Shown in pieces: positions 1,879 through 23,614 of a stretch of 24,000 nucleotides of DNA. The notes beneath the pieces are model-generated. The model had not been told where the DNA came from, searched no databases, and saw nothing but the letters and a program-made list of their open reading frames with translations. The DNA lies in assembly GCA_963756785.1 (NCBI GenBank), contig CAVWPF010000007.1, positions 21,117 to 45,116 of the forward strand. Direction: 5' to 3'. Source of the DNA: an uncultured Actinomycetota bacterium (GTDB lineage: Bacteria; Actinomycetota; Actinomycetes; Sporichthyales; Sporichthyaceae). Both the position numbers and the translations under genes were made by a program. Every line of letters starts with the position of its first letter. Position 1 is the stretch's first letter.

Positions 1879-2289
1879 ATGACCGCCACCGTCCCCGCCG
1901 CGCTGACTACGTCCTCGGTCCGTCCGCTGGTTCGCTCCGGCCTGCTCGCCATCGCCGTTGCCTCACTCGCCACTCCGGTGGTCGCCGCTCTCGGCCACGC
2001 CGCGGGCGTCTCGCTGGACATCGCCGGCGAGCGAATCCCGCTGTGGGCCTTCGCGCAACTGACCGCGATTTTCTCCCTGATCGGGCTCGGCCTCGCCGTC
2101 GCCCTCGCCCGCCGCGCGGGGACCCCGCGTCGCACCTTCGTCCGCACCACCGGTGGGCTGACCGCGCTGTCGCTGGTCCCCGATGTTCTCGCGGACGCGA
2201 GCACCGGCACGATCTGCCTGCTGATGCTCACGCACCTGGTCGCGGCCGCGATCGTGATCCCGGCCCTGACCTCCCGACTGCCGGAGTGA
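1879..2289 (+). CDS. Small integral membrane protein, DUF6069-like
   Basis: 136 aa with 3-4 predicted TM segments. ATG is preceded by GGAGG (cggaggtatcccATG). The C-terminal MLTHLVAAAIVIPAL block resembles the conserved His-containing helix I associate with DUF6069 proteins. Confidence 0.65.
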   Translation: MTATVPAALTTSSVRPLVRSGLLAIAVASLATPVVAALGHAAGVSLDIAGERIPLWAFAQLTAIFSLIGLGLAVALARRAGTPRRTFVRTTGGLTALSLVPDVLADASTGTICLLMLTHLVAAAIVIPALTSRLPE

Positions 2290-2314
2290 CCGCGCGCCAC
2301 TACGCTGTCGGCGG

Positions 2315-2727
2315 CGACGAGCCGGCCGGACGGCCGCGCCGTGAGTCTTCCCGAGAGGCGAGCGGTGAGGAAAGTCCGGGCTCCACAGGGCACGGTGGTG
2401 GGTAACACCCACCCGGGGCGACCCGCGGGACAGTGCCACAGAAAACAAACCGCCGCCGGTTCGCCGGCGGTAAGGGTGAAACGGTGGTGTAAGAGACCAC
2501 CAGCGTCCGGGGTGACCCGGACGGCTAGGTAAACCCCACCCGGAGCAAGGCCAGGATCGTCGGGCACTTTCTTCAGCGCCCGGCGTGTGTGAGCGTTCGA
2601 GGGCTGCCCGCCCGAGCTCACAGGTAGGCCGCACGAGGCCGGCGGCAACGTCGGTCCCAGATGGATGGCCGTCAGTCGGGCCGCAAGGCCCGATTACAGA
2701 ACCCGGCTTACAGGCCGGCTCGTCGTC
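2315..2727 (+). ncRNA. rnpB: RNase P RNA, bacterial type A
   Basis: Universally conserved blocks are present. GAGGAAAGTCCGGGCTCCACAGGGCA starts at 2367 (P4 5' strand). ACAGAAAACAAACCGCC and GGTAAGGGTGAAACGGTGGTGTAAGAGACCACCAG follow. ACAGAACCCGGCTTA lies at 2696-2710 (P4 3' strand). 5' CGACGAGCCGGCC (2315-2327) is exactly complementary to 3' GGCCGGCTCGTCG (2713-2725), forming P1. A length of about 413 nt is normal for actinobacteria. Ends are accurate to a few nt. Confidence 0.92.
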
Positions 2728-2910
2728 TACCACCCTCCGTGACCTGCGGGGGAGCGGTGTTTGTGCAGTCACCGGGTCTTTCGGAAGTTCCTTCCAGTCT
2801 CGCCTAGTACTGGCGATCACCCGCTGTTTCCGGTTAGCCCGTGGGGTTGGCGTGGATTGACGCGGCGTCAGATCCCAGCATGCCGTCAGTCGCCGCCCTG
2901 GTGGCCTCAT

Positions 2911-2942
2911 CGATACGTCGGGCGCAAGTGCCCGACGTATCG
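2911..2942. other. Perfect 13-bp stem / 6-nt loop hairpin in a roughly 320-nt non-coding stretch
   Basis: CGATACGTCGGGC (2911-2923) pairs with GCCCGACGTATCG (2930-2942), loop GCAAGT. It sits between rnpB (+) and the convergent small secreted-protein gene (-). It could terminate either, or belong to an unannotated RNA. Confidence 0.35.
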
Positions 2943-3025
2943 AACGACCCGGTGATGCTGGCGTGCCCGGGGGCCTGAACGACCTTCGGGTGCTCACCGG
3001 ACGGTCATCTGTTAATCGGCCGACC

Positions 3026-3048
3026 GAAAAGACCCGGCGAGAGGCCGG
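3026..3048 (-). terminator. Possible intrinsic terminator of the 3051..3266 gene
   Basis: The minus strand reads CCGGC-CTCTC-GCCGG followed by GTCTTTTC, starting 3 nt after the stop codon. The stem is short (5 bp), so confidence is low. Confidence 0.35.
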
Positions 3049-3050
3049 CG

Positions 3051-3266
3051 TCAGCAAGATCCTTTAGCGCTTCTCGCAGGCAACCCAGTGCCCCTGACGC
3101 GGTCTACCGCGTTGCTCTGACCGAGACCGTGCGGGTACACCCCGTTCAGTTGCGTGCAGTTCTTGTACGGATACGGCGGGGCGGCGCCGGTCGCCACGGC
3201 AGGCGTGGCGAGAGAAACCATGCAAACAATGGTGAGGAGCGCGATGAGATTGGTATGAGCACGCAT
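3051..3266 (-). CDS. Small secreted protein with a YKNCTxLNxxYPHG motif
   Basis: Start re-set to the internal ATG (3266-3264), giving MRAHTNLIALLTIVCMVSLATPAVATGAAPPYPYKNCTQLNGVYPHGLGQSNAVDRVRGTGLPARSAKGSC. This has a clear Sec signal peptide. The Y-K-N-C-T-x-L-N-x-x-Y-P-H-G block is a motif I recall from the N-terminal part of actinobacterial excalibur-type secreted proteins; the excalibur DxDxDG part is absent here. Local GC is lower than the flanks. Confidence 0.55.
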   Translation of the reverse strand: MRAHTNLIALLTIVCMVSLATPAVATGAAPPYPYKNCTQLNGVYPHGLGQSNAVDRVRGTGLPARSAKGSC

Positions 3267-3285: not shown

Positions 3286-4095
3286 CTAGGAATAAGGACC
3301 GGGCAGTTTCTCGGGCATGCATGCTTCACCTGCGTACCCCGTAATCCAGCGATACTGCACACACTCGGGGAGGCCGAATCCGAATTCAAATCTAGCACCG
3401 ACGGGCGGTTCGCTCGCCGTACAAAATACTATTCCCACCGCCACTTCCTCACCAGGCTTAAGGGTGACGGTGAATGTTCGCGAGTCGACATCCTCGGCAT
3501 AAGTGGGCTCGGCCGCGGCGTCATCCACATCGGTGTATCGGGCCCCACGGGGCTGAATCGTCACCTCGGCCACTTCAGTGTCCGAATCATTCTGGGCCGC
3601 TATAAGTATCTCGCCGCAATTCGGCCCTTCACCGGCGGGCACGACATCCTGGCCGAAACTGAACAACACTTCACCCGCAGGGCTCCGCGGACTCGAATCA
3701 AACGTCTCACCGAAGGAAAGCACCCGAAAGTCTGTCGGGTCGGAGGCAAAATTGCTGTAGTGGACGTTGACGCAGCCCGCGGCATTCCACTCCCGTGAAT
3801 GGGCCATCCCTGCCAGGTAGAAGGCGTGACACGCCCGGTCAACCGCTTCGTTCCGGCTGATCATCGCGGCGACCCGTTCGTCCGCAGAGGAGTCCGACGT
3901 TGCGGTGGCGTCCGGAGTGGCAGTGGCGGGTGAAATCGCAGCGGCGGAGAACGAATCGACACCATCGAAGGCCGCCTGCGGAGCGGCCGCGAGGGAGGTC
4001 GGGGCGGCGTCGGTGGTCGTGCTGACACAAGCCGGAATGGCCCCCAAAGCCACCGCGGTGGCCGTCAGACCGAGTCGGCTCGACGCCGTCCGCAT
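3286..4095 (-). CDS. Hypothetical Cys-rich lipoprotein
   Basis: Start taken at ATG 4095 (MRTASSRLGLTATAVALGAIPAC) with lipobox-like A-I-P-A-C; the track start at 4113 is a TTG. The mature part has an Ala/Thr/Ser/Asp-rich linker and 7 further cysteines. I recognise no family. GC is clearly below the window average (individual 60-nt lines are 50-62%). The stop lies 19 nt before the next gene's start. Confidence 0.6.
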   Translation of the reverse strand: MRTASSRLGLTATAVALGAIPACVSTTTDAAPTSLAAAPQAAFDGVDSFSAAAISPATATPDATATSDSSADERVAAMISRNEAVDRACHAFYLAGMAHSREWNAAGCVNVHYSNFASDPTDFRVLSFGETFDSSPRSPAGEVLFSFGQDVVPAGEGPNCGEILIAAQNDSDTEVAEVTIQPRGARYTDVDDAAAEPTYAEDVDSRTFTVTLKPGEEVAVGIVFCTASEPPVGARFEFGFGLPECVQYRWITGYAGEACMPEKLPGPYS

Positions 4096-4500
4096 ACCAA
4101 GATCATCGAGCAACGGCGGCAGCTACAGCCATGCCGTGCCGGTTGTGATCATGGAAATACTTGTCCATGCGGGGCGACCGCCGAAGCGGCTACAACAGCC
4201 CGCTGCCGTGAGCGGTCTTACGATCGCGCACATCGACCCACCCGACGAGACCCGCGGCCGCCTGGCCGATCAACCGCAAGGGGCTCAACGAGGGCCTCAA
4301 GGCCGCTGTGCGACGTGCGGGTTTGCCGGGCCGGGCCGCCGTTTCGTCCAGTCACCGCCGCGACTGGGCCCGGCTCTGGACGAGGCGTTACGTTCGTCGC
4401 CGCTCAGCCGACCTGAGTCCCTCGTGGTGCCGACCACCGGCTCTTCCCGGCGGCGCTGTGGAACGCTCGGGCCACGGAATCCCGGGCGAGGAGATCAGCA

Positions 4501-4941
4501 GTGGCGATCGACGTGGAGAGTCGGGTGGTGATTCGCTGCCCGCTCGAACGGGTGGCTGCCTTCGCCGCCGACCCCGACCGGATCACCCAGTGGTATCGCC
4601 GGATCCAGTCGGTGCAGTGGCGCACCCCGAAACCGCTGGCAGTGGGCACCGAGCTCGACTTCACGGCACAGTTCCTCGGCCGCCGGCTGGTCTACACCTA
4701 TCGGGTGATCGAGCACGACCCCGGCCGGACGCTGGTCATGCGGACCACGGACGGGCCATTTCCGATGGAGACCACCTACACCTGGGAGGCAGTTGATGCC
4801 GACTCCACCCTGATGCGCTTGCGTAATCGGGGGGATCCGGCGGGCTTCTCCCGGCTCGTGGCCCCATTCCTGGGTCGGGCGGTCCGCCGTGCCAACCGGC
4901 AGGATCTACAGCGGCTGGCCGATCTTCTCCACGCTGCCTGA
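4501..4941 (+). CDS. SRPBCC-superfamily protein (polyketide cyclase/dehydrase-like, START/Bet v1 fold)
   Basis: 146 aa. GTG start is preceded by GAGGAG. The sequence VESRVVIRCPLERVAAFAADPDRITQWY....W.....L.VG......A.FLGRR..Y.Y.V.E.DPGR.LVMRT..GPFPMETTYTWE is the typical layout of SRPBCC family proteins. Confidence 0.8.
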   Translation: MAIDVESRVVIRCPLERVAAFAADPDRITQWYRRIQSVQWRTPKPLAVGTELDFTAQFLGRRLVYTYRVIEHDPGRTLVMRTTDGPFPMETTYTWEAVDADSTLMRLRNRGDPAGFSRLVAPFLGRAVRRANRQDLQRLADLLHAA

Positions 4942-5106: not shown

Positions 5107-6489
5107 TTAGCGAGCAGGACCTGGTCCACCGGTCGTATCGTGTGCGCGCCGCCCGCCGATCTCGACGAAGAACTGGGCGGCAGCCACCTGGACGGCGCTG
5201 GACCATGTCGGGTAGGCGTGCATCGTGGCGGCGAGGCGACCGGTGAACATGCCGGTGGCGATGGCCAGGGCCGCTTCGGCCAGCATCTCCCCGGCCCGCG
5301 GGGCGACGATGGTCGCGCCGAGCAGCCGGCCTCCGCCGAGGTTGCGGAGCACGGGGCGCGGTCCGGCGATCAGTTCGATGAAGCCCGCCGTGGCGTCGTC
5401 GGTGATCGCGCGGTCGACCTCGTCCAGGGGGAGGTGCGCGATGCGGGCACCGGTGGGTGCATCGTCGCGTCCCAGGCCGACCTGCGCGATCTCCGGGCTG
5501 GTGAACACCACCCGAGGAATCACGGGCGGGCGCCAGGGCCGGGGCCGGCGCCGCAGCGCGTTCGCGGCCGCGTGCCGGCCCATGTCGTCCGCCGCGTGGG
5601 TCAGCATGGCCCGGGCGGTGACATCCCCGGCGGCGAAGATGCCGGCGGCCGCGCGCAGCGTCGGGTCGGTGACGGGCACGCCGCGGACATCGACGCGGAT
5701 CCCGGCGGCGTCGAGACCGAGGTCGGCGGTCTCGGCTCGACGACCGGTGGCGACCAGCACCCGCTCGGCCTCGACGCGGGTGCCGTCACTGAGCACAGCG
5801 CTGGCCCCGGCTGCGCCGGGCACCAGGTTCTGCACGCCGGTCGCGGCGCGCACGGTGATCCCGGCTTCGGTGAAGACGTCGGTGAGGATCGCGGCGGCGC
5901 GGGCGTCCTCAGCGGGCAGGAGCCGGGGCCCGGTCTCGACGAGGGTGACCCGGGTCCCGAAGCGGGCGAAGGCCTGCGCCAGTTCGCAGCCGATCGCGCC
6001 GCCGCCGATCACGAGCAGCGAGTGCGGTGCCGAGCGCAGTTCGAACACGGACTCGTTGGTCAGGTACGGCACGTCGCCCAGCCCGGGAATAGGCGGGAGC
6101 GCCGGGCGTGAGCCGGTAGCGAGCACAACCCGCGATGCCTGCAGCAACATCCCGTCGACGTCGAGGTGGACGGAGCCGCGGGCGTTGCCGTGCAGGCGGG
6201 CGTGGCCACGGATGACCTCGATCCCTTCCGCGCGCAGTACGTCGGCGGACTCGGCTGCGGCGACGCGGTCGATCGCGGCGTGGATCCGAGCCGTCGCCGC
6301 CGGGAAGGTCAAGCCCGCCCGGGCGGCGGCGATCAGGGTCTTGGACGGTACGCAGCCGGTGAACGTGCAGTCCCCGCCCGGTTCGCTCGCGGTGATCAGC
6401 CGGACCCGGGCGCCGCGGCGGCGGGCCTCGCGCGCCGCGCCGAGTCCGGCGGCGCCGCCGCCGATGACCACGAGGTCGACGTCCTTCAT
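5107..6489 (-). CDS. Class-I pyridine nucleotide-disulfide oxidoreductase (MerA / dihydrolipoamide dehydrogenase-like flavoprotein disulfide reductase)
   Basis: 460 aa. FAD fold DLVVIGGGAAGLGAA, redox-active disulfide GGDCTFTGCVPSK (CxxxxC), NAD(P)H fold LLVIGGGAIGCELAQAF, and a C-terminal dimerisation motif HAYPTWSSAV. Its ATG (6489-6487) overlaps the upstream gene's TGA (6488-6486) as ATGA. There is no N-terminal HMA domain and no C-terminal Cys-Cys, so it is not a canonical MerA. Confidence 0.9.
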   Translation of the reverse strand: MKDVDLVVIGGGAAGLGAAREARRRGARVRLITASEPGGDCTFTGCVPSKTLIAAARAGLTFPAATARIHAAIDRVAAAESADVLRAEGIEVIRGHARLHGNARGSVHLDVDGMLLQASRVVLATGSRPALPPIPGLGDVPYLTNESVFELRSAPHSLLVIGGGAIGCELAQAFARFGTRVTLVETGPRLLPAEDARAAAILTDVFTEAGITVRAATGVQNLVPGAAGASAVLSDGTRVEAERVLVATGRRAETADLGLDAAGIRVDVRGVPVTDPTLRAAAGIFAAGDVTARAMLTHAADDMGRHAAANALRRRPRPWRPPVIPRVVFTSPEIAQVGLGRDDAPTGARIAHLPLDEVDRAITDDATAGFIELIAGPRPVLRNLGGGRLLGATIVAPRAGEMLAEAALAIATGMFTGRLAATMHAYPTWSSAVQVAAAQFFVEIGGRRAHDTTGGPGPAR

Positions 6490-7298
6490 TTGCGCGCCAC
6501 GAACAGGCTGTACCCGAGGTGCCCGGCGCTGATCGCGGCGCGGACCTCGGCGACCACCGCGGAAACCTCATCGCGGTCGATGGCCCGGATCGCGCCGCTG
6601 CGGGCGAGTATGCCGATCATCAGCAGACGGGCTTCGACCCGCTCGACCATGGCGACGAGCGCGTCGTCGTGGGCCTCGACCGTCTCCACCTCGAACCCGC
6701 CCGCAGTCAGCAGGCGCCGGTAGTCCACAGCGCTGCCGGCGCCGCCGATGCAGGCGATCCGGGACGCCCAGGTCCGCAGCCGGGGCGGCAGCCGGTCCAG
6801 GTCGGCCGTCACGTCGCTGATCCCGACCTGCCCGCCGGGACGCAGCGCGCGGAGCATCTCGGCGACCGCGGTCTCCTGGTCGGGGAAGGTGCACAACGCA
6901 CACTCGCAGATCACGGCATCGAACTCGCCGTCACCGACCGGCAGCGCCTCCGCGTCCCCGAGGCGAAATTCGGCGCGTGCCGTGAGTCCGGCCGACTCGG
7001 CCGCGGCCCACGCGTGCTCCACATTGCGCGCCGCCAAATCCACCCCGCATACCGCGACCGGGTAGGCCGCGGCGATGGCCAGCGCGCTGGTGCCGCGGCC
7101 GCTGGCAACATCGAGCAGCCGATCGTCGGCCCGCAGATCGAGGTGCGAGATCAGACGGTGCGTCAGATCCAGCCCTCCGGGGTGGAAGGATTGCCCCAGC
7201 AGGAGCGTCATCCAGTCCGCGCCATACGCCTCGGCGCAGCAGGCCTTGAAGTCCGCGGGATTGTCGCTGGTCAGTCGGCCGGTCGCCTGACTGTTCAT
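6486..7298 (-). CDS. ArsM-like, cysteine-lined class I SAM-dependent methyltransferase
   Basis: Start re-set to ATG 7298-7296 (MNSQATGRL), which overlaps the radical SAM stop as ATGA; the track start at 7502 lies inside the upstream gene. SAM motif I is LLDVASGRGTSA. N-terminal vicinal pair: KACCAEAY....LLGQSFHPGGLDLT. DAVICECALCTF places a Cys where ArsM has its ..SNC.. As-binding Cys. WASRIACIGGAGSAVDYRRLLTAGGFE parallels the ArsM W.GC.AGA....Y...L..AGF block. The comparison is from memory of ArsM sequences. Confidence 0.85.
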   Translation of the reverse strand: MNSQATGRLTSDNPADFKACCAEAYGADWMTLLLGQSFHPGGLDLTHRLISHLDLRADDRLLDVASGRGTSALAIAAAYPVAVCGVDLAARNVEHAWAAAESAGLTARAEFRLGDAEALPVGDGEFDAVICECALCTFPDQETAVAEMLRALRPGGQVGISDVTADLDRLPPRLRTWASRIACIGGAGSAVDYRRLLTAGGFEVETVEAHDDALVAMVERVEARLLMIGILARSGAIRAIDRDEVSAVVAEVRAAISAGHLGYSLFVARK

Positions 7299-8905
7299 GG
7301 CGCCGGTCGGGTGGGGTGGGCGGCATTGCGGGAGCCGTAGGGCGAGACGGTCAGCAGCGGCGCAAGCTCGTGGGCGTTGGGCACGACCGGGGAGATCGCC
7401 ACCCCGGACATCTGGGCCCGGACCTGTTCGCGATAGCCGACGGAGTTGTAGGCACAGAACGGGATGAGCCGTCCGTCGGGGGTGATCTCCTCGACGCAGC
7501 ATTTGCGCAGCTGCTTGGTGTTAAGCGTGTAGGGGTCCTGGAAGTCCTGGACGATGATCGCGAAGACGTGATCGGTAAGGGTTCTGATGACCGCAGGCAG
7601 GTCGATCCCGCAGGCATCGTCGCAGTCGAGAGCTTCGGTGATCATCCGCAGCCGCTCGTCCGTCGGGCCGGCGCCAAGGTTGGCCGAGGCACTCCACAGC
7701 TTCTCCAACGCCTCCTGGATGGCCAGGTCGGGGATGACCCGGTTGCTGACGTAGTCCAGGTAGTCCCCGATCTCGATCAGTCGGGGGATGGGGAGTAGCG
7801 AGAAGTCGTCAGTGCCTGGGATCCCGTCGGTCAGCAGGTAGGTGATGGAGCGGCAGGTGGGGAAACAGCACGGGACGGGGAAGAAGTCGCTGGCCCGGAA
7901 CCACTCGGGCAACTGTGCGGCGATGCCGTGGATGATGTCGGGGTTGGTCAGGCGTGTCAGCGGGTCGAAGGGCACGTGGCGACCGGAATGGGTGACCGGC
8001 TGGAACGCCACCGACCGGACCGCGGGGTGCTCGAGGCCGAACCGGATGATCGCCCCGAGCTCGTGTTCGTTGACTCCCTTCTCCACCGCGGCGACCAACG
8101 TGACCGTGAGGCCGACCTCGGCGCAGTTGTCGAGGGCGCGGCGTTTGATCTCGCGCAGGTCCCGTCCGCGGATCGCGCGGCTGGTCGCCTCTTCCAGGCC
8201 ATCGAACTGCAGGTAGATGGAGAGCGGGCGCCCGGGGGTGTTGCGTTCGCCGAGTGCGGCGACGAAGCGGCGGTCCGAGGCCAGCCGGATGCCGTTGGTG
8301 TTCAGGGTGACGACCTTGATCGGGCGGGCCTGGGCCAGGTCGATGAACTCCAGGATCTGCTTGTGGATGGTCGGTTCCCCGCCGGAGAACATCACGACCT
8401 CCGGTTCGCCCTCCGCGGCCACGAAGGCGTCGAGCATCACCGCGCACTGCTCGGCGGTGATCGAGTACCCGTCGGGTTGGTGGCCCGAGTCCGCAAAGCA
8501 AATCGGGCAGTCGAGGTTGCAGCCGGTGTTCACCTCGATCAGGCCAAGACACGCGTGCTGCTTGTGGTCCGGGCACAGCCCGCAGTCCGACGGGCACCCC
8601 TCCACCACCTCGGTCTGAAAGGTGAGCGGGATCGTGCCGGGCTTGTTGAACCGCACCGAGTCCAGGTACATCTGCGCGTCGCTGTAGACCAGCGCCTCGA
8701 ACTGCCCGTGCTCGCGACACCGCTTGCGCAGGTACACCTTGTCCTCACGGATGTTTACTTCCGCGTCGATGGTCACCTTGCACACCGGGCAGATCGAGCG
8801 GGTTGCCTCCAGGAACACCTCGGGATGTTCCCGGCGCGGCGGTGTTGCAGCGGGCGGAAGAAGGTCGGTCACCGAGTTCCCTTCGGGCGGCGCGGGTGTC
8901 GACAC
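7295..8905 (-). CDS. Multi-cluster radical SAM enzyme (Tes / GDGT-MAS / class-D radical SAM methylase-like architecture)
   Basis: 536 aa. N-terminal CPVC..(21 aa)..CREH zinc-ribbon or rubredoxin-like motif. Auxiliary CPSDCGLCPDHKQHAC (Cx3Cx2Cx7C). Canonical radical SAM CNLDCPIC-F (Cx3Cx2C) and the GGE motif MFSGGEPT. C-terminal Cys motifs PVPCCFPTC and RKCCVEEITPDGRLIPFCAYN. Start is GTG 8905; an alternative GTG at 8869 is preceded by GAAGGG. Confidence 0.88.
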   Translation of the reverse strand: MSTPAPPEGNSVTDLLPPAATPPRREHPEVFLEATRSICPVCKVTIDAEVNIREDKVYLRKRCREHGQFEALVYSDAQMYLDSVRFNKPGTIPLTFQTEVVEGCPSDCGLCPDHKQHACLGLIEVNTGCNLDCPICFADSGHQPDGYSITAEQCAVMLDAFVAAEGEPEVVMFSGGEPTIHKQILEFIDLAQARPIKVVTLNTNGIRLASDRRFVAALGERNTPGRPLSIYLQFDGLEEATSRAIRGRDLREIKRRALDNCAEVGLTVTLVAAVEKGVNEHELGAIIRFGLEHPAVRSVAFQPVTHSGRHVPFDPLTRLTNPDIIHGIAAQLPEWFRASDFFPVPCCFPTCRSITYLLTDGIPGTDDFSLLPIPRLIEIGDYLDYVSNRVIPDLAIQEALEKLWSASANLGAGPTDERLRMITEALDCDDACGIDLPAVIRTLTDHVFAIIVQDFQDPYTLNTKQLRKCCVEEITPDGRLIPFCAYNSVGYREQVRAQMSGVAISPVVPNAHELAPLLTVSPYGSRNAAHPTRPAP

Positions 8906-8942: not shown

Positions 8943-8958
8943 TGTCAGCGTTCTGACA
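8943..8958. promoter_or_regulatory. Box 1: TGTCAG-CGTT-CTGACA perfect palindrome upstream of the radical SAM operon
   Basis: Read directly: gcTGTCAGCGTTCTGACAtc. Its centre is 45.5 nt upstream of the GTG at 8905, in the 97-nt gap between the 9003..9224 gene and the radical SAM gene. Confidence 0.7.
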
Positions 8959-9002: not shown

Positions 9003-9224
9003 TCAGTGCGCCGCGCGAAGCCCGAGCAGCCCAGCGAGGATGAGGACGAGACCGATCACGACCAACCGCACTGAGGCCCATCGCCAGGTGAGCGTGAGCG
9101 CTGCGATGGCCAGCACCAAGAACACACTTCCCTGGATCGCCACGACGCGATCTGTAGGTGGGAGCAGGATCTCCTCCCACCACGGGCGGTCCACCGCTTC
9201 CCCCTTGCTGATCAGCTTCTCCAC
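9003..9224 (-). CDS. Small two-TM membrane protein (hypothetical)
   Basis: 73 aa (63 aa from the internal GTG preceded by AGGGGGA). Two hydrophobic helices, VVAIQGSVFLVLAIAALTLTW and LVVIGLVLILAGLLGL. GC3 is high. It has its own palindromic box upstream. I recognise no family. Confidence 0.5.
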   Translation of the reverse strand: MEKLISKGEAVDRPWWEEILLPPTDRVVAIQGSVFLVLAIAALTLTWRWASVRLVVIGLVLILAGLLGLRAAH

Positions 9225-9266: not shown

Positions 9267-9282
9267 TGTCAGCGAGCTGACA
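9267..9282. promoter_or_regulatory. Box 2: TGTCAG-CGAG-CTGACA perfect palindrome upstream of the small TM-protein gene
   Basis: Read directly: ggTGTCAGCGAGCTGACAag. Its centre is 50.5 nt upstream of the GTG at 9224, in the 82-nt gap after the glutaredoxin-like gene. Confidence 0.7.
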
Positions 9283-9306: not shown

Positions 9307-9651
9307 TCAGCGCCCGCGCGGCAAGCGTCGGCGAAGCCACCCCACCAACCCGCGGCGACCAGCAGTGTCGCGTCCAGCCGGCAGCAGTTCCGGGGCGAGG
9401 TCGGCGACGGCGCTAAGGACGTCCCGGAGGCGGGGAGCGACCAAGGCGCGAGCGCCGATGAAGACGGTGGGCACGGTCTCGTTCCCGCCGGCCACAGCGC
9501 GCACCCGCGCCGCGCCGGCGGGCTCGGCCCAGATGTTGGTCTCGCGGGTCGGGATGCCGGTCCGCGCCAGCCCTCGACGGAGGCGGCCGCAGAAGGGGCA
9601 CGATGGGCGCCAGTACACCTCGACCACCTCGATCCTCTTGGTGCGGCTCAC
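9307..9651 (-). CDS. Glutaredoxin-like / mycoredoxin-like thiol-disulfide oxidoreductase
   Basis: Start re-set to GTG 9651-9649, which overlaps the upstream TGA (9650-9648) as GTGA. Translation VSRTKRIEVVEVYWRPSCPFCGRLRRGLARTGIPTRETNIWAEPAGAARVRAVAGGNETVPTVFIG shows a CPFC active site and the cis-Pro TVPTV block of the thioredoxin fold. The track start at 9834 overlaps the upstream gene. Confidence 0.75.
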   Translation of the reverse strand: MSRTKRIEVVEVYWRPSCPFCGRLRRGLARTGIPTRETNIWAEPAGAARVRAVAGGNETVPTVFIGARALVAPRLRDVLSAVADLAPELLPAGRDTAGRRGLVGWLRRRLPRGR

Positions 9652-10070
9652 GCGAACCGCTCCAACCAGGACGTGAGTGCGTAGAGCCCCGCGTAGGTTG
9701 CGACGGCGATCCCGATCAAACCGAGCAGCCGGGTGCGGATGCGCCGGACTCCGGCGACCGAGCAGGCGTTCTGGCGGCGCAACGACCACCAGACCAGGCC
9801 GGCCAGAACGGCGAGGCCCGCCACGCGGAACCACCAGGCGTAGCCGTCATACAGCGTGTTCCCCCAGCTCAACGCCGTTGCCCCGCTGACCACCCCGACG
9901 GCGGCCAGGACGGTGGGACCGACGCAGCACAGGATTCCGGTAACGCCGGCCAGGACGCCGATCCGCCACCGCGGCGGTGCGGGCGGGTTCGATGACGGCA
10001 ATCCCAACGGCGGACCCGTCGCGGGCCGGCGATCGCGCGTCGTGTCGGTGTTCCGCGGCGGAGGGTTCAC
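9648..10070 (-). CDS. MerT-like three-TM transporter (mercuric/soft-metal transport protein superfamily)
   Basis: Start re-set to GTG 10070-10068, which overlaps the DUF427 TGA (10069-10067) as GTGA. TM1 GVTGILCCVGPTVLAAVGVVSGATALSWGN parallels Tn501 MerT SACCLGPLVLIALGFSGAWIGN (from memory). TM2 is followed by the loop WWSLRRQNACSVAG (MerT: AWRRIYRPAQACKPGDVC), but with a single Cys. TM3 is LLGLIGIAVATYAGLYAL. Confidence 0.65.
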   Translation of the reverse strand: MNPPPRNTDTTRDRRPATGPPLGLPSSNPPAPPRWRIGVLAGVTGILCCVGPTVLAAVGVVSGATALSWGNTLYDGYAWWFRVAGLAVLAGLVWWSLRRQNACSVAGVRRIRTRLLGLIGIAVATYAGLYALTSWLERFA

Positions 10071-10390
10071 CGGCGGTTCGCGGGGTGGACTTCGCGGACC
10101 TCCACGCCGTGCCAGAAGGCGACGTAGTTCTTGATCCGGCGGGCCAACGGGGAGGGGTGCGGGTAGTACCAGGCGGCAGCCGGGTTGACGATGCCGTCGA
10201 CCTCGACGTCGTAGTAGCGCGCCTTTCCCTTCCAGGGGCACAGCGAGGTACGGGTCGAGGCCGTCAGGTGCTCCTCGCGCAGGGAGTCCGGGGGGAAGTA
10301 GACGTTGCCCTCCACTCGTCGGATCTCGCTGGATTCGGCGATCACCGTGTCGTTCCACACCGCCTGCCACGTGCTCTTCATCGAACTCAT
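10067..10390 (-). CDS. DUF427 domain protein
   Basis: 107 aa. AESSEIRRVEGNVYFPPDSL....L..S...S.CPWKGKARYYDV.....V..AAWYYP.P...A..I.NYVAFW matches the DUF427 signature I recall (EGN.YFP, CPWKG.A.YY, VAFW). ATG is preceded by GGAAGGG. Confidence 0.85.
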   Translation of the reverse strand: MSSMKSTWQAVWNDTVIAESSEIRRVEGNVYFPPDSLREEHLTASTRTSLCPWKGKARYYDVEVDGIVNPAAAWYYPHPSPLARRIKNYVAFWHGVEVREVHPANRR

Positions 10391-10473: not shown

Positions 10474-10489
10474 TGTCAGTGATCTGACA
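10474..10489. promoter_or_regulatory. Box 3: TGTCAG-TGAT-CTGACA perfect palindrome upstream of the DUF427 / MerT-like / Grx-like operon
   Basis: Read directly: cgTGTCAGTGATCTGACAga. It overlaps the stop codon (10478-10476) of the CPTC membrane-protein gene. Its centre is 91.5 nt upstream of the DUF427 ATG. Confidence 0.7.
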
Positions 10490-11042
10490 GAACCTGACCG
10501 AGGCGGCACGCGGGCGGCTGCAGCCGCCGATGCAGCGCCAGCAGCAAGACCGCGAGGGCCACCACACCGATCAGCGGCTGGACCGGTGCGAACAGTGAGA
10601 GTGCGCCCCCGGTGCCCAGGGCGGCCACGGCGGCAGCGTTGCACGTGGGGCACCCGATCGCGATGAGCGAGAGCAGACCACCGCCGACCGTCTGCCCGCC
10701 GCCGGTCTCGCTCGGGACCAGCCTGGGAGAACCGCCGCCACTGCTCATGGCTGCGAACCACATGCCCATGATGACCGCGGACAAGGCCCACAGCGGATAA
10801 GCCCAGAGCGGCGCAGGGATTGGGCGGGAGTACAACGAAGTGTCGATGATCCCGGTGGGTACCCCGGACACCAGGGCCGCTGCGATCGCGCTCAGCGTCG
10901 CGATCGTCCAACGCCGCGCACTCCACGACCGCAGGACGAGGACGTCTTCGTGCAGAGCGGTTCGGTAAGCGGCGACGCTCTGGGTCCGGCGCTGCCGTGC
11001 GGCTGCGCTCGGTGGTGGTCCGGGGGGAGTGGTCGCCGTCAT
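10476..11042 (-). CDS. Integral membrane protein with an intramembrane CPTC motif (hypothetical)
   Basis: 188 aa. It has an Arg-rich N-terminal tail and 4-5 hydrophobic segments. LLSLIAIGCPTCNAAAVAALGTGGALSLFAPVQPLIGVVALAVLLLAL carries a CxxC inside a predicted helix. I cannot name a family. Confidence 0.65.
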   Translation of the reverse strand: MTATTPPGPPPSAAARQRRTQSVAAYRTALHEDVLVLRSWSARRWTIATLSAIAAALVSGVPTGIIDTSLYSRPIPAPLWAYPLWALSAVIMGMWFAAMSSGGGSPRLVPSETGGGQTVGGGLLSLIAIGCPTCNAAAVAALGTGGALSLFAPVQPLIGVVALAVLLLALHRRLQPPACRLGQVLSDH

Positions 11043-11083: not shown

Positions 11084-11099
11084 TGTCAGGGAACTGACA
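11084..11099. promoter_or_regulatory. Box 4: TGTCAG-GGAA-CTGACA perfect palindrome upstream of the CPTC membrane-protein gene
   Basis: Read directly: ggTGTCAGGGAACTGACAat. Its centre is 49.5 nt upstream of the ATG at 11042, in the 97-nt gap after the Crp/Fnr gene. Confidence 0.7.
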
Positions 11100-11139: not shown

Positions 11140-11799
11140 TCACGCGAGTAGGGCTGCGAGCTTTCCCCGGTCGGTAATGGTGATCCTGCGGTAGGCCAGG
11201 GAGATCAGGCCGTGGCCTGCGAGTTCCTGAAGGACCTTGTTCAGGCTGGGGCGACGGGCCCCGAGCATGGCCGCCAGGGTGCTCTGGGAGATCGTGACCA
11301 CTCCCTCGTCGTCGGCCTCGTCGAGAAGCAGCTGTGCGGCCTGTGCGGTGAGTTTGCCCCCGAGCAGGCCGATCAACCGGTTCTGACTGTGGGCCAGCCG
11401 GGCCGCGACGCTGGCCAGCCAGCGCCGTGCGATCTGGCCGTGGCCGGCGATGATTGTCTCGAAGTCCTCCGGGGAGAGGTAGAGGCACTCGGCGTGCTCG
11501 AGGGCGCGGGCGGTGTACGGCATCGGCATGCCCAGCAGCAGAGGCACATCGCCCTCGATGTCGCCCGGTCGCAGTAGCGCCAGCACGGCGCGCTTGCGCC
11601 CCGAGCCGATCGAGAGTTCCACCCGCCCCGAGCGCACCAGCCACACCCCGGCTGAGGAGGCGTCCGGGCCGAAGAGGCGCTCGCCCGGCTCCAGGCTGCG
11701 CAGCTGCAGGTGATTGGCCAGCGCTGTCACGTCGGCGGGGGTGAGCGGAACAGCCGCACCGCGACCCACGCAGCGGGCCACCCAGGCCGCATGGCGCAC
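11140..11799 (-). CDS. Crp/Fnr-family transcriptional regulator
   Basis: N-terminal cNMP-binding-like beta-roll (LEPGERLFGPDASSAGVWLVRSGRVELSIG....LALLRPGDIEGDVPLL), a dimerisation helix, and a C-terminal wHTH (ISQSTLAAMLGARRPSLNKVLQELAGHGLI). Start re-set to GTG 11799 (219 aa, normal for the family) because box 5 lies inside the 5' extension of the track ORF (11934). The exact start is uncertain; other in-frame GTGs lie within the next 30 codons. Confidence 0.82.
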   Translation of the reverse strand: MRHAAWVARCVGRGAAVPLTPADVTALANHLQLRSLEPGERLFGPDASSAGVWLVRSGRVELSIGSGRKRAVLALLRPGDIEGDVPLLLGMPMPYTARALEHAECLYLSPEDFETIIAGHGQIARRWLASVAARLAHSQNRLIGLLGGKLTAQAAQLLLDEADDEGVVTISQSTLAAMLGARRPSLNKVLQELAGHGLISLAYRRITITDRGKLAALLA

Positions 11800-11835: not shown

Positions 11836-11851
11836 TGTCAGCACGCTGACA
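11836..11851. promoter_or_regulatory. Box 5: TGTCAG-CACG-CTGACA perfect palindrome upstream of the Crp/Fnr gene (autoregulation candidate) in the divergent intergenic region
   Basis: Read directly: tgTGTCAGCACGCTGACAct. Its centre is 44.5 nt upstream of the proposed GTG 11799 and about 185 nt upstream of the divergent + strand gene at 12029. Confidence 0.7.
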
Positions 11852-12028: not shown

Positions 12029-12559
12029 ATGGGGACTGTGCCCGGAACCGCCACCTCGGATGCGTTGACCATGCGGCTGTTCCGCGGAGCGATCGGGGGT
12101 GTCGGCGCCGGCCTGCTGTTCATCTGGGCCACGATGTGGTTCGCCTCGGAGATGCCCGACGGCAAGTCGGAGATGCCGCTACGGATGATCTCGACGATCC
12201 TCAAGGGCGACGGCGCGATGATGGAGGGCACGACCAGCGTCGGGCAGGGCTGGGCGATTCACCTGGTCCTCTCAGCTGCCTTCGGCATCACCTTCGCGCT
12301 CCTCACCCCGATGATGAAGACCAACGGGACGGTGCTGCTGGCGGGAACGATGTACGGCGCGATGCTCTACGTCGTCAATTTCCTGATCCTCGCACCGCTG
12401 GCGTTCACCACCTTCGAGGATGCCAACCAGCCCTTCGAGTTGGTCGTGCACATCGTCTTCGGCACGGTGATGGCGATGGCGTTTCTGTCCAGCGGGCCAC
12501 GACGCAACGAACCGGTGTGCGCGATGGACAAGCCCGCCCTGCACACCGCCGGCGTCTGA
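12029..12559 (+). CDS. Hypothetical integral membrane protein
   Basis: 176 aa with four hydrophobic segments (GVGAGLLFIWATMWF, WAIHLVLSAAFGITFALL, VLLAGTMYGAMLYVVNFLILAPL, VVHIVFGTVMAMAFL). ATG is preceded by GGAGAGG. An alternative ATG at 12071 would give MRLFRG. It ends 27 nt before the ECF sigma gene. Confidence 0.6.
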   Translation: MGTVPGTATSDALTMRLFRGAIGGVGAGLLFIWATMWFASEMPDGKSEMPLRMISTILKGDGAMMEGTTSVGQGWAIHLVLSAAFGITFALLTPMMKTNGTVLLAGTMYGAMLYVVNFLILAPLAFTTFEDANQPFELVVHIVFGTVMAMAFLSSGPRRNEPVCAMDKPALHTAGV

Positions 12560-12586: not shown

Positions 12587-13171
12587 GTGAACTCGCCACC
12601 GGCCGGTGCCGACTTCGTCGGCACCGTGATGCCGTCGGTGGATCTGGTGCACAACCTGGCCCGCCGGCTCGTCCGTCGACCCGAGGACGCCGCGGATCTG
12701 GTGCAGGACACCCTGACCCGGGCCTGGGAGGCCTGGACCCGTGGTGTTCGGCCCGAATCGGTCCCCGCGTGGTTGTCCACCATCTGTCTCAACCTTGCGC
12801 GCGACCAGGCCCGCCGGGCGGCCCGGCGCCGCGAGACCGGCTGGGACCAGTCTCCCGAGCCGGCGGCGGAGGTCGACGTCGCCGGGGCGGCGATCGCCCG
12901 GGTCCAACGGGCACAGATCGAGGCAGCCTTGTGGGCGCTGCCCGAGGTTCAACGGATCGCGATCGTGCTGATGGACATCTGCGGGCTCAGCGCAGCGGAG
13001 GTGGGCGCGGTTCTCGACGCACCGCGGGGAACCGTCCTGGCCCGGGTTCATCGAGGGCGCAAAGCGTTGGCGGCCGAGGTGGCCCGCCGGGCCCGACGAC
13101 CCGACCCCCGACAGGCCGTAGACCGCCGAGATGCCGTAGCGGAGGACTCCGATGACCAGCCCCCCGCATGA
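12587..13171 (+). CDS. ECF-type RNA polymerase sigma-70 family factor
   Basis: Region 2 (PEDAADLVQDTLTRAWEAW....PAWLSTICLNLARDQARR) and region 4.2 (LPEVQRIAIVLMDICGLSAAEVGAVLDAPRGTVLARVHRGRKAL) are clear. The start at GTG 12587 is tentative. Confidence 0.9.
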   Translation: MNSPPAGADFVGTVMPSVDLVHNLARRLVRRPEDAADLVQDTLTRAWEAWTRGVRPESVPAWLSTICLNLARDQARRAARRRETGWDQSPEPAAEVDVAGAAIARVQRAQIEAALWALPEVQRIAIVLMDICGLSAAEVGAVLDAPRGTVLARVHRGRKALAAEVARRARRPDPRQAVDRRDAVAEDSDDQPPA

Positions 13172-13907
13172 TCCGGAGGCCGCAGCTGCGGCCTACCTCG
13201 CTGCTGACTTCAGCCCGGACGGACGAGGGGAATTCGAGGCGCACCTCCTCGAATGCGAAGCGTGTTGGGGTGAGGTTCGCAGTGCCCGGGACGGCCGCGC
13301 GCTGGCAGAAGATCTGCGCGAGAGCGCTCCCCAGGCGGCGCGGGAATTTCTGCGCACACTCGGCTCCGACACCGGTGGGGCCGGCGGGGATGCCACAGGC
13401 GTTGCCGTCAGCCGATCCGCCGGTACCGGGCAAGGGCAGCGACGATCCTGGCTCTCGATCGCGGCGGCGGTCATCGCCGGTGCCGCGCTCACCGGCGGGC
13501 TGCTGCTCGGTCCGCTGAGCGAGGGTTCCCAGGATGGCCGCGCGCAGCTCGCCGCCGCCGCCGCCCTCTACACCGACGACGCTCTCGCCGTCGTGCGCAC
13601 CGGAACACCGCCGGTTGTCCGGCTGGGGGCCCTGGGGTGGCGCGGCACCTCGACCGCATCGTTGGCCGGCCAGCCGGCCACGGTCCACCGCTACGCCGAT
13701 GCCGGAGGGCACCGGGTGCTCCTGGTCAGTTCCCTGCGCGAGTTCCCGAGGCCGAAGGACGCCCAGACGGTGCTCGGATCGAGCTGGAGCGCCCGGATCG
13801 ACGGCACCGCCATCTTCTGTGTCGATCACGGTGGTCTGTCCTGGCTGGTGATCGGTGCATCCCGTGACCTGGCGATCGAGGCCGGTCGGCAGGCGGGGCT
13901 GGCATGA
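13152..13907 (+). CDS. Membrane-anchored anti-sigma factor with a zf-HC2 / ZAS motif
   Basis: ATG is preceded by GGAGGA and overlaps the sigma gene by 20 nt. N-terminal EFEAHLLECEACW is H-x3-C-x2-C. There is a single TM, WLSIAAAVIAGAALTGGLLLG, and a roughly 130-aa extracytoplasmic domain. Its stop overlaps the next ATG as ATGA. Confidence 0.8.
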   Translation: MTSPPHDPEAAAAAYLAADFSPDGRGEFEAHLLECEACWGEVRSARDGRALAEDLRESAPQAAREFLRTLGSDTGGAGGDATGVAVSRSAGTGQGQRRSWLSIAAAVIAGAALTGGLLLGPLSEGSQDGRAQLAAAAALYTDDALAVVRTGTPPVVRLGALGWRGTSTASLAGQPATVHRYADAGGHRVLLVSSLREFPRPKDAQTVLGSSWSARIDGTAIFCVDHGGLSWLVIGASRDLAIEAGRQAGLA

Positions 13908-15094
13908 ACGCGATCGGGACGCCCTCGCGCCGGGCCGTGCTCGCCGGCGCGGGGTTGTTCGTCCTCGCCGGCTGCGGGGCCGGGTCCGGATCATCCACGG
14001 CGGGGTCCGCACCCTCCGCCGGGGACGCCGGATCCTCTGGGCAGGCCGGGGCGTCCGGGCCGTCGGCCCTGGACGACCCCCGGGCCCCCGGTCTGCCCGA
14101 CCCGCTGATCGACACCGACCGGCTAGTCTCCGGCGGCCCAGGGCCGGACGGCATCCCGTCGATCGACTCGCCACGGTTCCGCGGTCCCGAGGTCGAAGGC
14201 GATCTGGTCGACGACGAGCCGGTCCTGGCGATCGAGCTCGAGGGCGTCGCGCGGGCGTACCCGATCCGGATCATGATCTGGCACGAGATCGTCAACGACA
14301 CCGTCGCCGGCATTCCGCTGGCGATCACGTACTGCCCGTTGTGCAACTCCGCGCTGGCGTTCGAGCGTCGCGTGGACGGCCGCGAGCTGACCTTCGGGGT
14401 CTCCGGGCTGCTCTACAACTCCGACCTGGTGATGTTCGACCGCCAGACCGAGTCGCTGTGGCCGCAGATCGAGGGCCGGGCCGTCGCCGGAGTGCTCACC
14501 GGGACCGAGCTGACCCGCCAGACCGTCACCGTCCAACCCTGGGCCACCTGGCGCGAAGCGCATCCGCGCGGCGAGGTGCTCTCCGCCGACACCGGCCACC
14601 GCCGGGACTACGGGCGCAACCCCTACCCGGGTTACGACAACCCCGGGGACCGTCCGTTCCTGTACCAGGGTGAGCTCGATGATCGGCTGCCGCCGAAGGC
14701 CCGGGTGATCGCGCTCCGGGCGGCCGATGAGGATCTGGTGATCGCCTTCGACCGGGTGGAGCGCGATCGCGTCGTCACCGCGCGGATCGGCGGACGTCCG
14801 GTCGTCGTGCTCGCCGGCCCGCCGGCCGCCTCACCCCTCGACGACGACCGGATTGCCGACGGGAGACCCCGGGTCAGCGCGCGGGTCTTCGACCCGCTCC
14901 TGGACCGGCGCCGGCTGACGTTTCTCGCCGAGGGGAACGGTTATCGCGACACCGCCACGGGGTCCCGCTGGGACGCCGATGGCCACGCCCGCTCCGGTCC
15001 GCTGGCCGGCCGGTCCCTCGCGCCGGTCGAGGCCACCGAGACCTTGTGGTTCGCCTGGATCGCGTTCCGCCCCGACAGCCGCACCCTGCTCTGA
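13904..15094 (+). CDS. DUF3179 domain protein, predicted Tat-exported lipoprotein
   Basis: 396 aa. The N-terminus TPSRRAVLAGAGLFVLAGC combines a twin-arginine motif with a lipobox. DUF3179-type blocks as I recall them: GPDGIPSIDSPRF, RAYPIRIMIWHEIVND, PLAITYCPLCNSALAF and GVSGLLYNSDLVMFDRQTESLWPQ. Confidence 0.85.
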   Translation: MNAIGTPSRRAVLAGAGLFVLAGCGAGSGSSTAGSAPSAGDAGSSGQAGASGPSALDDPRAPGLPDPLIDTDRLVSGGPGPDGIPSIDSPRFRGPEVEGDLVDDEPVLAIELEGVARAYPIRIMIWHEIVNDTVAGIPLAITYCPLCNSALAFERRVDGRELTFGVSGLLYNSDLVMFDRQTESLWPQIEGRAVAGVLTGTELTRQTVTVQPWATWREAHPRGEVLSADTGHRRDYGRNPYPGYDNPGDRPFLYQGELDDRLPPKARVIALRAADEDLVIAFDRVERDRVVTARIGGRPVVVLAGPPAASPLDDDRIADGRPRVSARVFDPLLDRRRLTFLAEGNGYRDTATGSRWDADGHARSGPLAGRSLAPVEATETLWFAWIAFRPDSRTLL

Positions 15095-15137
15095 CCCGAC
15101 CATCCGCCGCGCCTCGCCGACCACCCAGGAGCCACGA

Positions 15138-15731: not shown

Positions 15732-15800
15732 GGGAGCATCAGAAATGCTGGGTCCAGCGGTGGAGGCTGGGATGGGGTCGAGCGTGGGTGAGGGCGCAGC

Positions 15801-21895: not shown

Positions 21896-22074
21896 CGGTC
21901 GCGAATCCCTTGTTCTGCAGCTAATTGCCAGGTTCGATGAGCCGTCGGGGGACCGCGGTCCGCGGCAGGCCACGACTTGATCAAGGAACACCCCATCGCC
22001 CGCGAAGCCACGCCCCGAGTTCCCACACTCAGCGGCGAGGGGATCGGTGCGCGGCCGTGCGCACCGGTAGCCCG

Positions 22075-23523: not shown

Positions 23524-23614
23524 GTCCTTTCCGGGTTCGGCGCGGCGAGGCGTTCGAAATTCGCCATCTCCCAGGTTGGTGAAGAAGGATGGGCCCCGGG
23601 GAGGGGGTCCCGTT

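Follow-up and report, generated by a model that had tools for sequence, protein, structure and literature searches.

A radical S-adenosylmethionine (SAM) protein resembling the tetraether synthase Tes is encoded together with a small methyltransferase in the TrsS/DVU_1555/DVU_1556 cluster (NCBIfam models NF045646, NF045669 and NF045667), and the methyltransferase ArsM is genetically paired with a radical SAM enzyme in the ArsM-ArsS and ArsM-ArsL systems. TrsS and DVU_1556 are curated but uncharacterised families defined bioinformatically, TrsS reportedly in a paper by Haft and Tolstoy (mSystems, 2025). Tes itself (GDGT-MAS; MJ0619, structure 7TOL) consists of four domains, with a rubredoxin-like iron site (three cysteines and a histidine), an N-terminal [4Fe-4S] cluster (three cysteines and a histidine), the SAM cluster and a C-terminal [4Fe-4S] cluster (three cysteines and a methionine) (PMC13459092). 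Here we describe a stretch of 24,000 nucleotides from an uncultured Actinomycetota bacterium of the Sporichthyaceae (contig CAVWPF010000007.1, positions 21,117 to 45,116; hereafter the window), in which a radical SAM gene of the Tes/TrsS superfamily and a methyltransferase gene form a pair. The pair belongs to a clade that is a variant of the TrsS and DVU_1556 families. No NCBIfam model covers this clade, and the names given to its members in the databases are generic, stopping at 'radical SAM protein' and 'class I SAM-dependent methyltransferase'.

In the window the pair is followed by a flavoprotein gene, and all three genes are on the minus strand: the radical SAM enzyme at 7295-8905 (536 aa), the class I SAM methyltransferase at 6486-7298 (270 aa) and a flavin adenine dinucleotide (FAD)- and NAD(P)H-type flavoprotein with a CxxxxC motif at 5107-6489 (460 aa). 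A preliminary description, made from the DNA letters, had claimed that the three genes are joined by ATGA start/stop overlaps, and the coordinates of the open reading frames (ORFs) and both junctions agree with it: the radical SAM and methyltransferase genes overlap at 7298/7295 (CCATGAAC) and the methyltransferase and flavoprotein genes at 6489/6486 (AAATGAAG). Each cysteine motif that it quoted for the three genes was found at the place given. The methyltransferase starts with the ATG at 7298; for the radical SAM gene there are two candidate starts, GTG 8905 (536 aa) and GTG 8818 (507 aa, as in the product held in public collections). The G+C content of the window is about 70% and the DNA is actinobacterial in character.

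The radical SAM enzyme matched the Pfam families Zn_ribbon_HMPTM (the MJ0619-type zinc ribbon) and Radical_SAM, and phmmer aligned it along its length with the tetraether synthase 7TOL (E 1.8e-72, residues 23-498 against chain residues 16-503). The rubredoxin-like site reads C39xxC42...C63xxH66, the N-terminal cluster site C104x3C108x2C111x7C119, with C104, C108, C111 and H114 as the ligands aligned with those of Tes, and the SAM cluster CNLDCPIC (C129x3C133x2C136); the C-terminal cluster site is KCC...C (469, 470 and 484), and PCCFPTC (346-351) and DCDDAC (428-432) are present in addition. The cysteine and histidine ligands of the Tes metal sites are all kept, aligned and at least 98% conserved, and in an alignment of 82 sequences all 20 cysteines of the protein were at least 98% conserved. 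These results are in agreement with the Tes/MJ0619 architecture proposed earlier and with the four cysteine constellations on which the proposal was based; all four are present, although the shorthand used for the C-terminal motifs (CC..C and CC...C) was only approximate.

The enzyme differs from Tes, to which it is about 35% identical, in additional conserved cysteines (PCCxxxC, DCxxxC, C154 and C261) and in its score of 310.8 bits on the Tes model NF045702, below the cut-off of 450. Its partner and its hosts differ as well: in the actinobacterial clade the gene is accompanied by the methyltransferase, and the hosts are Streptomyces, Mycobacterium, Micromonospora and relatives, aerobic genera for which, to our knowledge, no tetraether production has been reported. 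The TrsS model NF045646 gave a slightly better score, also below its cut-off (341.3 bits, cut-off 490). The zinc ribbon, N-terminal cluster, SAM cluster and C-terminal CC...C are shared with TrsS, and so is a PC(x)4C motif (346/351, PCCFPTC here) that is missing from MjTes and present in most of the wider family, true TrsS included. At E <= 1e-30, a search of 1.84 billion representatives returned 663 clusters; those that group with the window enzyme, a few representatives with 38-47% identity, fall likewise below the Tes and TrsS cut-offs, while others in the wider family are true TrsS, with 545-571 bits. No ArsS or ArsL model was among the 25 best NCBIfam matches; the radical SAM partner is from a subfamily unrelated to ArsS and ArsL.

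For the methyltransferase, the best NCBIfam match was the DVU_1556 family NF045667, over the full length of the model and below its cut-off (128.0 bits, cut-off 155); DVU_1556 members adjacent to TrsS reach 206 and 234 bits on the same model. ArsM-type models ranked next, led by PRK11873 at 95 bits (cut-off 263). The protein contains the motifs KACCA (C20 and C21), SFHPGG (37-42), DAVICECALC (127-136) and ACIGGA (182-187), and C20, C21, C131, C133, C136 and C183 are invariant in an alignment of 55 sequences. With DVU_1556 it has in common (L/H/R)PGG..LT, FD..xCEC, S/A-C-x-x-x-A and a C-terminal LGY..(I/V)A.K.

When the cysteine-bearing segment of the methyltransferase was used as query, the best solved match was Chlamydomonas ArsM (5EVJ), and the pairwise alignment placed C133 on the cysteine of SNC and C183 on that of ECLAGA. 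A MAFFT alignment with three annotated ArsM proteins again put C133 and C183 at the arsenic-binding cysteine positions of ArsM, which we take to be C174 and C224 of CmArsM, and aligned KACCA with ACC. The parallels with ArsM drawn in the preliminary description were thus recovered: CEC aligns with SNC, ACIGGA with GCI(A/S)GA and the N-terminal CC with the ACC of ArsM. C133 and C183 are also kept in a haloarchaeal homologue and in genuine DVU_1556 members from Desulfovibrio relatives, whereas the N-terminal CC and C136 are limited to the actinobacterial clade, the ACC-type cysteines being missing from the haloarchaeal and DVU_1556 proteins. A tblastn search of plasmids with the methyltransferase found one orthologue and otherwise mostly genes annotated as arsenite methyltransferase. 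The protein has the ArsM thiol pair, yet it is not an ArsM; by its sequence it is placed as a sister of the DVU_1556 family that is related to ArsM.

The conservation of the locus was analysed by scanning GTDB species representatives, which gave 369 matching stretches; the locus counts below are from the best 80 of the 369 (Sporichthya, Micromonospora, Kribbella, Amycolatopsis, Streptomyces, Mycobacterium, Nocardia and others). ORFs of the loci were called by the GC1>GC2 rule, and tblastn was the basis of the counts, since under single-linkage clustering overlapping ORFs caused some families to run together. Between the genera of these loci the identity of the radical SAM protein is 72-86%, and more than 6,000 proteins among the candidates scored matched it at E <= 1e-10. 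In 77 of the 80 loci the methyltransferase gene is the next one downstream of the radical SAM gene and has the same orientation; two of the other three are contig ends. A reductase of the window type follows the methyltransferase directly in only 6, and a pyridine-nucleotide flavoprotein of any type occurs within 8 kb of the radical SAM gene in 31. The conserved unit is therefore the radical SAM-methyltransferase pair and not the trio that the preliminary description had taken as one unit. Methyltransferase and radical SAM domains are also found fused in one protein (P0208 and P0269, in the wider family), which is strong evidence that the two enzymes work together.

Fusions of Tes-like radical SAM domains were seen in P0208, P0269, P0200, P0218, P0176, P0245 and P0217, the partners being a DVU_1556-like methyltransferase, a MobA-like NTP transferase (with or without HD), prolipoprotein diacylglyceryl transferase (LGT) and DUF5714. 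Judging from these partners, different clades of the superfamily seem to be tied to different substrates.

True TrsS loci were analysed for comparison (L086-L088; a Desulfovibrio isolate, Desulfobulbus rhabdoformis and a Coriobacteriia metagenome-assembled genome). The TrsS gene is flanked by a DVU_1555-family C-GCAxxG-C-C gene and by the gene of an AMP-binding enzyme, and two of the three loci have a DVU_1556-family methyltransferase gene two genes upstream. The genes that accompany TrsS (molybdenum enzyme, HdrD-like, AMP-binding, XdhC, MocA-like and C-GCAxxG-C-C) are all missing from the window and from the recurrent neighbours of the actinobacterial pair in the 80 loci. The partnership of the two enzymes is thus old, while the surrounding genes differ completely, which calls for caution in reading a substrate from either context alone.

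The flavoprotein had been described as a CxxxxC disulfide reductase. The motif is present (CTFTGC, C41 and C46) as a redox-active-type CxxxxC in the FAD domain, GGDCTFTGCVPSK, and Pfam identified Pyr_redox_2, Pyr_redox and the dimerisation domain; the protein is, however, not an ordinary disulfide reductase, since the catalytic HPT reads YPT (HAYPTWSS) when it is aligned with lipoamide dehydrogenase. Its score was 342 bits with a model of the PRK06370-type 'FAD-containing oxidoreductase' and 322 bits with the MerA model TIGR02053 (cut-off 454), and the tyrosine of its PYLT aligns with that of PYWT in Tn501 MerA (1ZK7). Unlike MerA, it has no N-terminal extension or NmerA domain and no C-terminal cysteine pair, the tail GGRRAHDTTGGPGPAR being free of cysteine. 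From these features the protein looks more like the MerA core than like a thiol-disulfide reductase, and it resembles the PRK06370-type relatives of MerA that lack the C-terminal cysteines in its FAD/NAD(P)H fold, CxxxxC, dimerisation domain, PYLT/PYWT tyrosine and replacement of the catalytic histidine by tyrosine; RclA is presumably among these relatives.

Four flavoprotein types were found near the pair: the window type (9 loci, the window included), an Amycolatopsis type (7), a GGECPYW...YPTFHR type (about 10) and true MerA, ending in SCCA(G/S), in loci L034, L055 and L058. In these last three loci mer-type genes lie directly beside the cluster of DUF427, MerT-like, radical SAM and methyltransferase genes (L034 5979-7884, L055 4271-6744 and L058 2606-6922); merB in L055 and an ArsR-type regulator and a multicopper oxidase in L058 were identified by eye from their motifs.

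Control by a Crp/Fnr protein, until now merely asserted, is supported by a repeated palindrome that is putatively the operator of a regulator encoded in the window. The motif TGTCAG-N4-CTGACA occurs in five exact copies in the window (8943, 9267, 10474, 11084 and 11836) against 0.16 expected, and none of 100 shuffles reached five. Each copy precedes a gene start by 38-84 nt, the genes being those of the radical SAM enzyme, a small hydrophobic ORF, DUF427, a membrane protein with CPTC and the regulator. The first, TGTCAGCGTTCTGACA (8943-8958), is 38 nt upstream of GTG 8905 and is a putative Crp-family operator of the radical SAM operon. The second, TGTCAGCGAGCTGACA (9267-9282), lies 43 nt upstream of GTG 9224, the start of the small hydrophobic ORF (9003-9224, minus strand, 73 aa), an uncertain gene with coding-like codon bias and no homologue in the 80 loci. 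The third, TGTCAGTGATCTGACA (10474-10489), is 84 nt upstream of the ATG of the DUF427 gene (10067-10390, minus strand), which encodes a protein of the beta-tent fold with a conserved LCPWKG. The GTG at 10070 of a MerT-like membrane protein (9648-10070, minus strand; a conserved GILCCVGPTVLA helix with CC, and a loop cysteine) overlaps the DUF427 stop codon as GTGA, and the GTG at 9651 of a glutaredoxin/mycoredoxin-like protein with a CPFC site (9307-9651, minus strand) overlaps the MerT-like stop codon in the same way. These three genes (9307-10390) form a second translationally coupled trio with the same palindromic motif. The fourth copy, TGTCAGGGAACTGACA (11084-11099), is 42 nt upstream of ATG 11042 of the 188-aa membrane protein with an intramembrane CPTC (10476-11042, minus strand), for which neither a family match nor, in the 80 loci, a homologue was found. 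The fifth, TGTCAGCACGCTGACA (11836-11851), lies where the regulator gene and a DUF1440-like gene diverge and is probably the site of autoregulation.

The regulator (11140-11799, minus strand; conserved part from GTG 11799) belongs to the Crp/Fnr family, with cNMP_binding (PF00027, 61 bits) and HTH_Crp_2 (PF13545, 51 bits) domains. It has one conserved cysteine (ARCVGRG) and no Fnr-type N-terminal cysteine cluster, and the position of the arginine that binds the phosphate of cyclic AMP (RS/TA) is a tyrosine, YTARA, as read by eye and not against a structure. For these two reasons the signal is probably neither cyclic AMP nor oxygen sensed through an Fe-S cluster.

Among the 80 loci, the radical SAM gene has a DUF427 gene near it in 43, a MerT-like gene in 15, a regulator orthologue in 13 and a more distant Crp-family gene in 24. 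The motif, with one mismatch allowed, is eight-fold denser in the loci that have a regulator orthologue, and in such loci of Amycolatopsis, Mycobacterium and Nocardia it lies upstream of radical SAM, Crp, DUF427, glutaredoxin-like, reductase and MerT-like genes. For loci free of the orthologue (Streptomyces, Micromonospora and Kribbella), the DNA upstream of the radical SAM gene was searched de novo for palindromes, and none was convincing as a second motif. In the Kribbella/Nocardioidaceae loci L005, L008, L014, L029 and L032 the place of TGTCAG, about 100-140 nt ahead of the radical SAM gene, is taken by a different long palindrome, AGAAC-N8-GTTCT (inner CGTTC-N2-GAACG), which may serve as operator for the other Crp-type regulator present in these loci. 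The idea of leaderless transcripts, with sites at -41.5, fits four of the spacings in the window (44.5-50.5 nt to the start codon), and no clean -10 elements were found. An Rfam scan detected no RNA element in the cluster.

Taken together, the core is a conserved, co-evolving two-enzyme module with many invariant thiols, extended in the window by a flavoprotein resembling the MerA core and placed within a putative Crp-family regulon, with TGTCAG-N4-CTGACA as the candidate site of the regulator. The regulon would also include the DUF427, MerT-like and glutaredoxin-like proteins and two other membrane proteins.

Other gene families recur near the pair. A DUF1440-like gene follows the methyltransferase (or reductase) gene directly on the same strand in 14 loci; its counterpart in the window, a four-helix membrane protein, lies at 12029-12559 on the plus strand. 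TlpA/ResA-like and CcdA-like genes are near the pair in 16-17 loci, and the DUF3179/TlpA/CcdA set overall in 14-17 of 80. The window has these families too, between 4501 and 16703 together with an SRPBCC gene: DUF3179 (13904-15094), a TlpA/ResA-like thiol-disulfide oxidoreductase, which is a lipoprotein-type thioredoxin with WCAIC (15138-15731), and a CcdA-like membrane protein (15801-16703), all on the plus strand. On a Mycolicibacterium vanbaalenii plasmid the neighbours of the pair are CcdA, a disulfide oxidoreductase, a glutaredoxin-domain protein, and AhpD-like and deiodinase-like proteins, and on a haloarchaeal plasmid, of Salinirubellus, they are peroxiredoxins, DUF547, SRPBCC, AhpD-like and TauE/SafE-family proteins. 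On the former plasmid the deiodinase-like and AhpD-like genes (L081, 1835-2650) are a few genes away from the pair. Several of the neighbour families occur elsewhere in selenocysteine forms (PMC9312934, PMC13188914), and the selenoproteins listed in other organisms comprise forms of DUF3179, MerT, glutaredoxin, ArsM, TrsS, deiodinase-like and AhpD-like proteins (PMC13188914), which points to nucleophilic or soft-metal-binding cysteines in these families.

We tentatively favour a model in which the pair handles a thiophilic substrate, a metal(loid) or a chalcogen; the class of substrate, the direction of the chemistry and the roles of reductase and transporter are what we infer. The thiophilic substrate (As, Sb, Se, Te, Hg or reactive sulfur) would enter through the MerT-like protein. 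The glutaredoxin-like protein and the flavoprotein would keep the substrate, or the thiols of the enzymes, reduced, by analogy with thioredoxin, which serves ArsM. The C133/C183 pair of the methyltransferase would hold the substrate for methylation from SAM, and the radical SAM enzyme, with its 5'-deoxyadenosyl radical and the extra PCCxxxC site, would make or break a bond between the element and an unactivated, probably hydrophobic, carbon. The preliminary description had proposed alkylation of a soft metal(loid). The context agrees with that proposal in the MerT-like CC protein, the flavoproteins resembling the MerA core and the merA or merB genes beside the cluster in three genomes; the missing arsenic genes and the missed ArsM cut-off do not.

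Several observations weigh against a thiophilic substrate. The methyltransferase scored 94.8 bits on the ArsM model NF008823, below the cut-off of 263, as it is below all ArsM cut-offs. The GCGNP cysteine of ArsM is missing; in the MAFFT alignment with the three ArsM proteins SFHPGG stands in its place, as had been noticed before, and the region reads S(F/Y)HPGG, with no cysteine there in the whole family. The AlphaFold model of the methyltransferase (predicted local distance difference test, pLDDT, 91.5) has as its closest solved folds small-molecule O-, N- and C-methyltransferases (AtmM, RebM, SpnF, MitM, TleD and the phosphoethanolamine methyltransferases, PMT), its predicted C-terminal cap resembles that of RebM/PMT-type enzymes, unlike ArsM, and ArsM was not among the 50 best structural matches. 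The identification of the methyltransferase as an ArsM was dropped because of this last result, and only the sharing of the ArsM cysteine pair was retained. No ArsC, Acr3 or aquaglyceroporin gene was found in any of the 80 loci, and ArsR-family genes occur in only 8. The mer genes adjoin the cluster in 3 of the 80 loci, which could reflect clustering in islands, and the Pfam MerT match of the MerT-like protein is below the gathering score. All three true TrsS loci hold aldehyde-oxidoreductase-type molybdenum enzyme, HdrD-like, XdhC and MocA-like genes and not metal genes. The only relative of the radical SAM enzyme that has been characterised joins lipid carbons (PMC13459092), and SRPBCC genes, which encode a hydrophobic-ligand-binding fold, recur near the pair, on the same strand and upstream in about 19 loci; one is also in the window (4501-4941, plus strand, convergent with the reductase gene). 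We hold the thiophilic model no more firmly than tentatively because the ars context is missing, an organic hydrophobic substrate would suit the fold neighbours and the SRPBCC genes equally well, and the TrsS context suggests maturation of a cofactor or protein. A metal(loid) or chalcogen substrate is plausible, and a hydrophobic organic one is a serious rival.

This rival, which we regard as unlikely but the one to be taken most seriously, is that the pair modifies a membrane lipid, a polyprenyl or a quinone-type compound, by Tes-like C-C coupling or C-H functionalisation followed by methylation. The conserved cysteines would then be catalytic or structural, and the thiol-redox genes would supply electrons or answer the same membrane or redox stress. 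The full-length homology of the radical SAM enzyme with Tes, with all four metal sites kept, agrees with it, as do the resemblance of the methyltransferase model to AtmM, RebM, MitM, SpnF, TleD and PMT and the SRPBCC genes just described; the LGT-radical SAM fusions indicate lipid substrates in some clades of the wider family. Bacterial Tes homologues have been treated as candidate synthases of membrane-spanning lipids (PMC11868695), but Tes homologues were not found in the known bacterial producers of such lipids (PMC13159169). Moreover, with 311 bits the radical SAM enzyme misses the Tes cut-off of 450, its extra PCCxxxC site is missing from MjTes, the six invariant cysteines of the methyltransferase include both ArsM positions, the operator motif suggests co-regulation of the pair with MerT-like and glutaredoxin-like genes, and lipid-biosynthesis families were not found among the recurrent neighbours in the 80 loci.

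The two substrates could also be combined, although we consider this rather improbable: the Tes-like radical SAM enzyme would attach to a hydrophobic chain, at its unactivated terminal carbon, the methylated As, Se or Te that the ArsM-like partner holds, and so yield arsenolipid-type or selenium-alkyl compounds, or the pair would alkylate mercury or a metalloid independently of HgcAB, under a dedicated Crp-family sensor. If a soft element were joined to a hydrophobic carbon, the Tes ancestry, the thiols shared with ArsM and the SRPBCC genes would fit together.

By analogy with the true TrsS loci, the pair might instead mature or repair a cofactor or a cysteine-rich protein, the redox proteins being clients or helpers. 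The molybdenum enzyme, XdhC, the MocA-like NTP_transf_3-HD protein, the C-GCAxxG-C-C protein and the DVU_1556 methyltransferase of those loci are consistent with such a role, together with the MobA-like-radical SAM fusions of the wider family and a TrsS score of the radical SAM enzyme (341 bits) slightly above its Tes score (311 bits). The TrsS score is nevertheless under the cut-off, the recurrent neighbours in the 80 actinobacterial loci include no gene for a molybdenum enzyme, XdhC or a MocA-like protein, and no small precursor peptide or obvious client gene is kept next to the pair; we consider maturation improbable. That the pair detoxifies arsenic or makes organoarsenicals in the classical way of ArsM-ArsS or ArsM-ArsL, to which the cysteine alignment with ArsM and the label 'arsenite methyltransferase' given to some homologues in JGI pipelines could point, is very improbable in view of the scores of the methyltransferase on the arsenosugar (44 bits, cut-off 400) and arsinothricin (33-50 bits, cut-off 500) ArsM models, the Tes/TrsS type of the radical SAM enzyme and the lack of ars genes nearby.

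The remaining features of the window lie outside the cluster. The block at 12587-16703 (plus strand) encodes an extracytoplasmic function (ECF) sigma factor and a zf-HC2 anti-sigma factor in front of the DUF3179, TlpA/ResA-like and CcdA-like genes. The sole Rfam match in the window is a bacterial RNase P RNA of class A at 2318-2726 (plus strand, 290 bits); minus-strand ORFs at 1728-2648 and 1963-3057 are spurious, since this RNA lies under them. A 275-aa ORF at 3286-4113 (minus strand) has no Pfam match, an N-terminus that by eye resembles a signal peptide and a dip in G+C content (0.61 against about 0.70), and an 891-aa ORF at 21301-23976 (minus strand) has no Pfam match either. A second, unrelated class I methyltransferase (222 aa) is encoded at 17789-18457 (plus strand), beside a HAD hydrolase and an alpha/beta hydrolase and outside the regulon; it gave a weak tblastn match to ArsM (34% identity). 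In the literature we found no function for DUF427 or DUF3179, and nothing on the locus tags DVU_1554-1557.

The enzyme pair is large in number and strongly constrained across the actinobacteria. Bacterial 'Tes homologues' are counted as markers of the potential to make branched tetraethers (PMC11868695); such counts may mislead, because this clade is partnered with a methyltransferase that carries a cysteine pair and appears to be co-regulated with genes of thiol and metal type. The five-site operator TGTCAG-N4-CTGACA offers an experimental handle on the inducing signal. If the metal(loid) reading is true, the pair would represent a third kind of radical SAM/ArsM-like chemistry, beside those of ArsS and ArsL, and could bear on the unexplained aerobic alkylation of metalloids.

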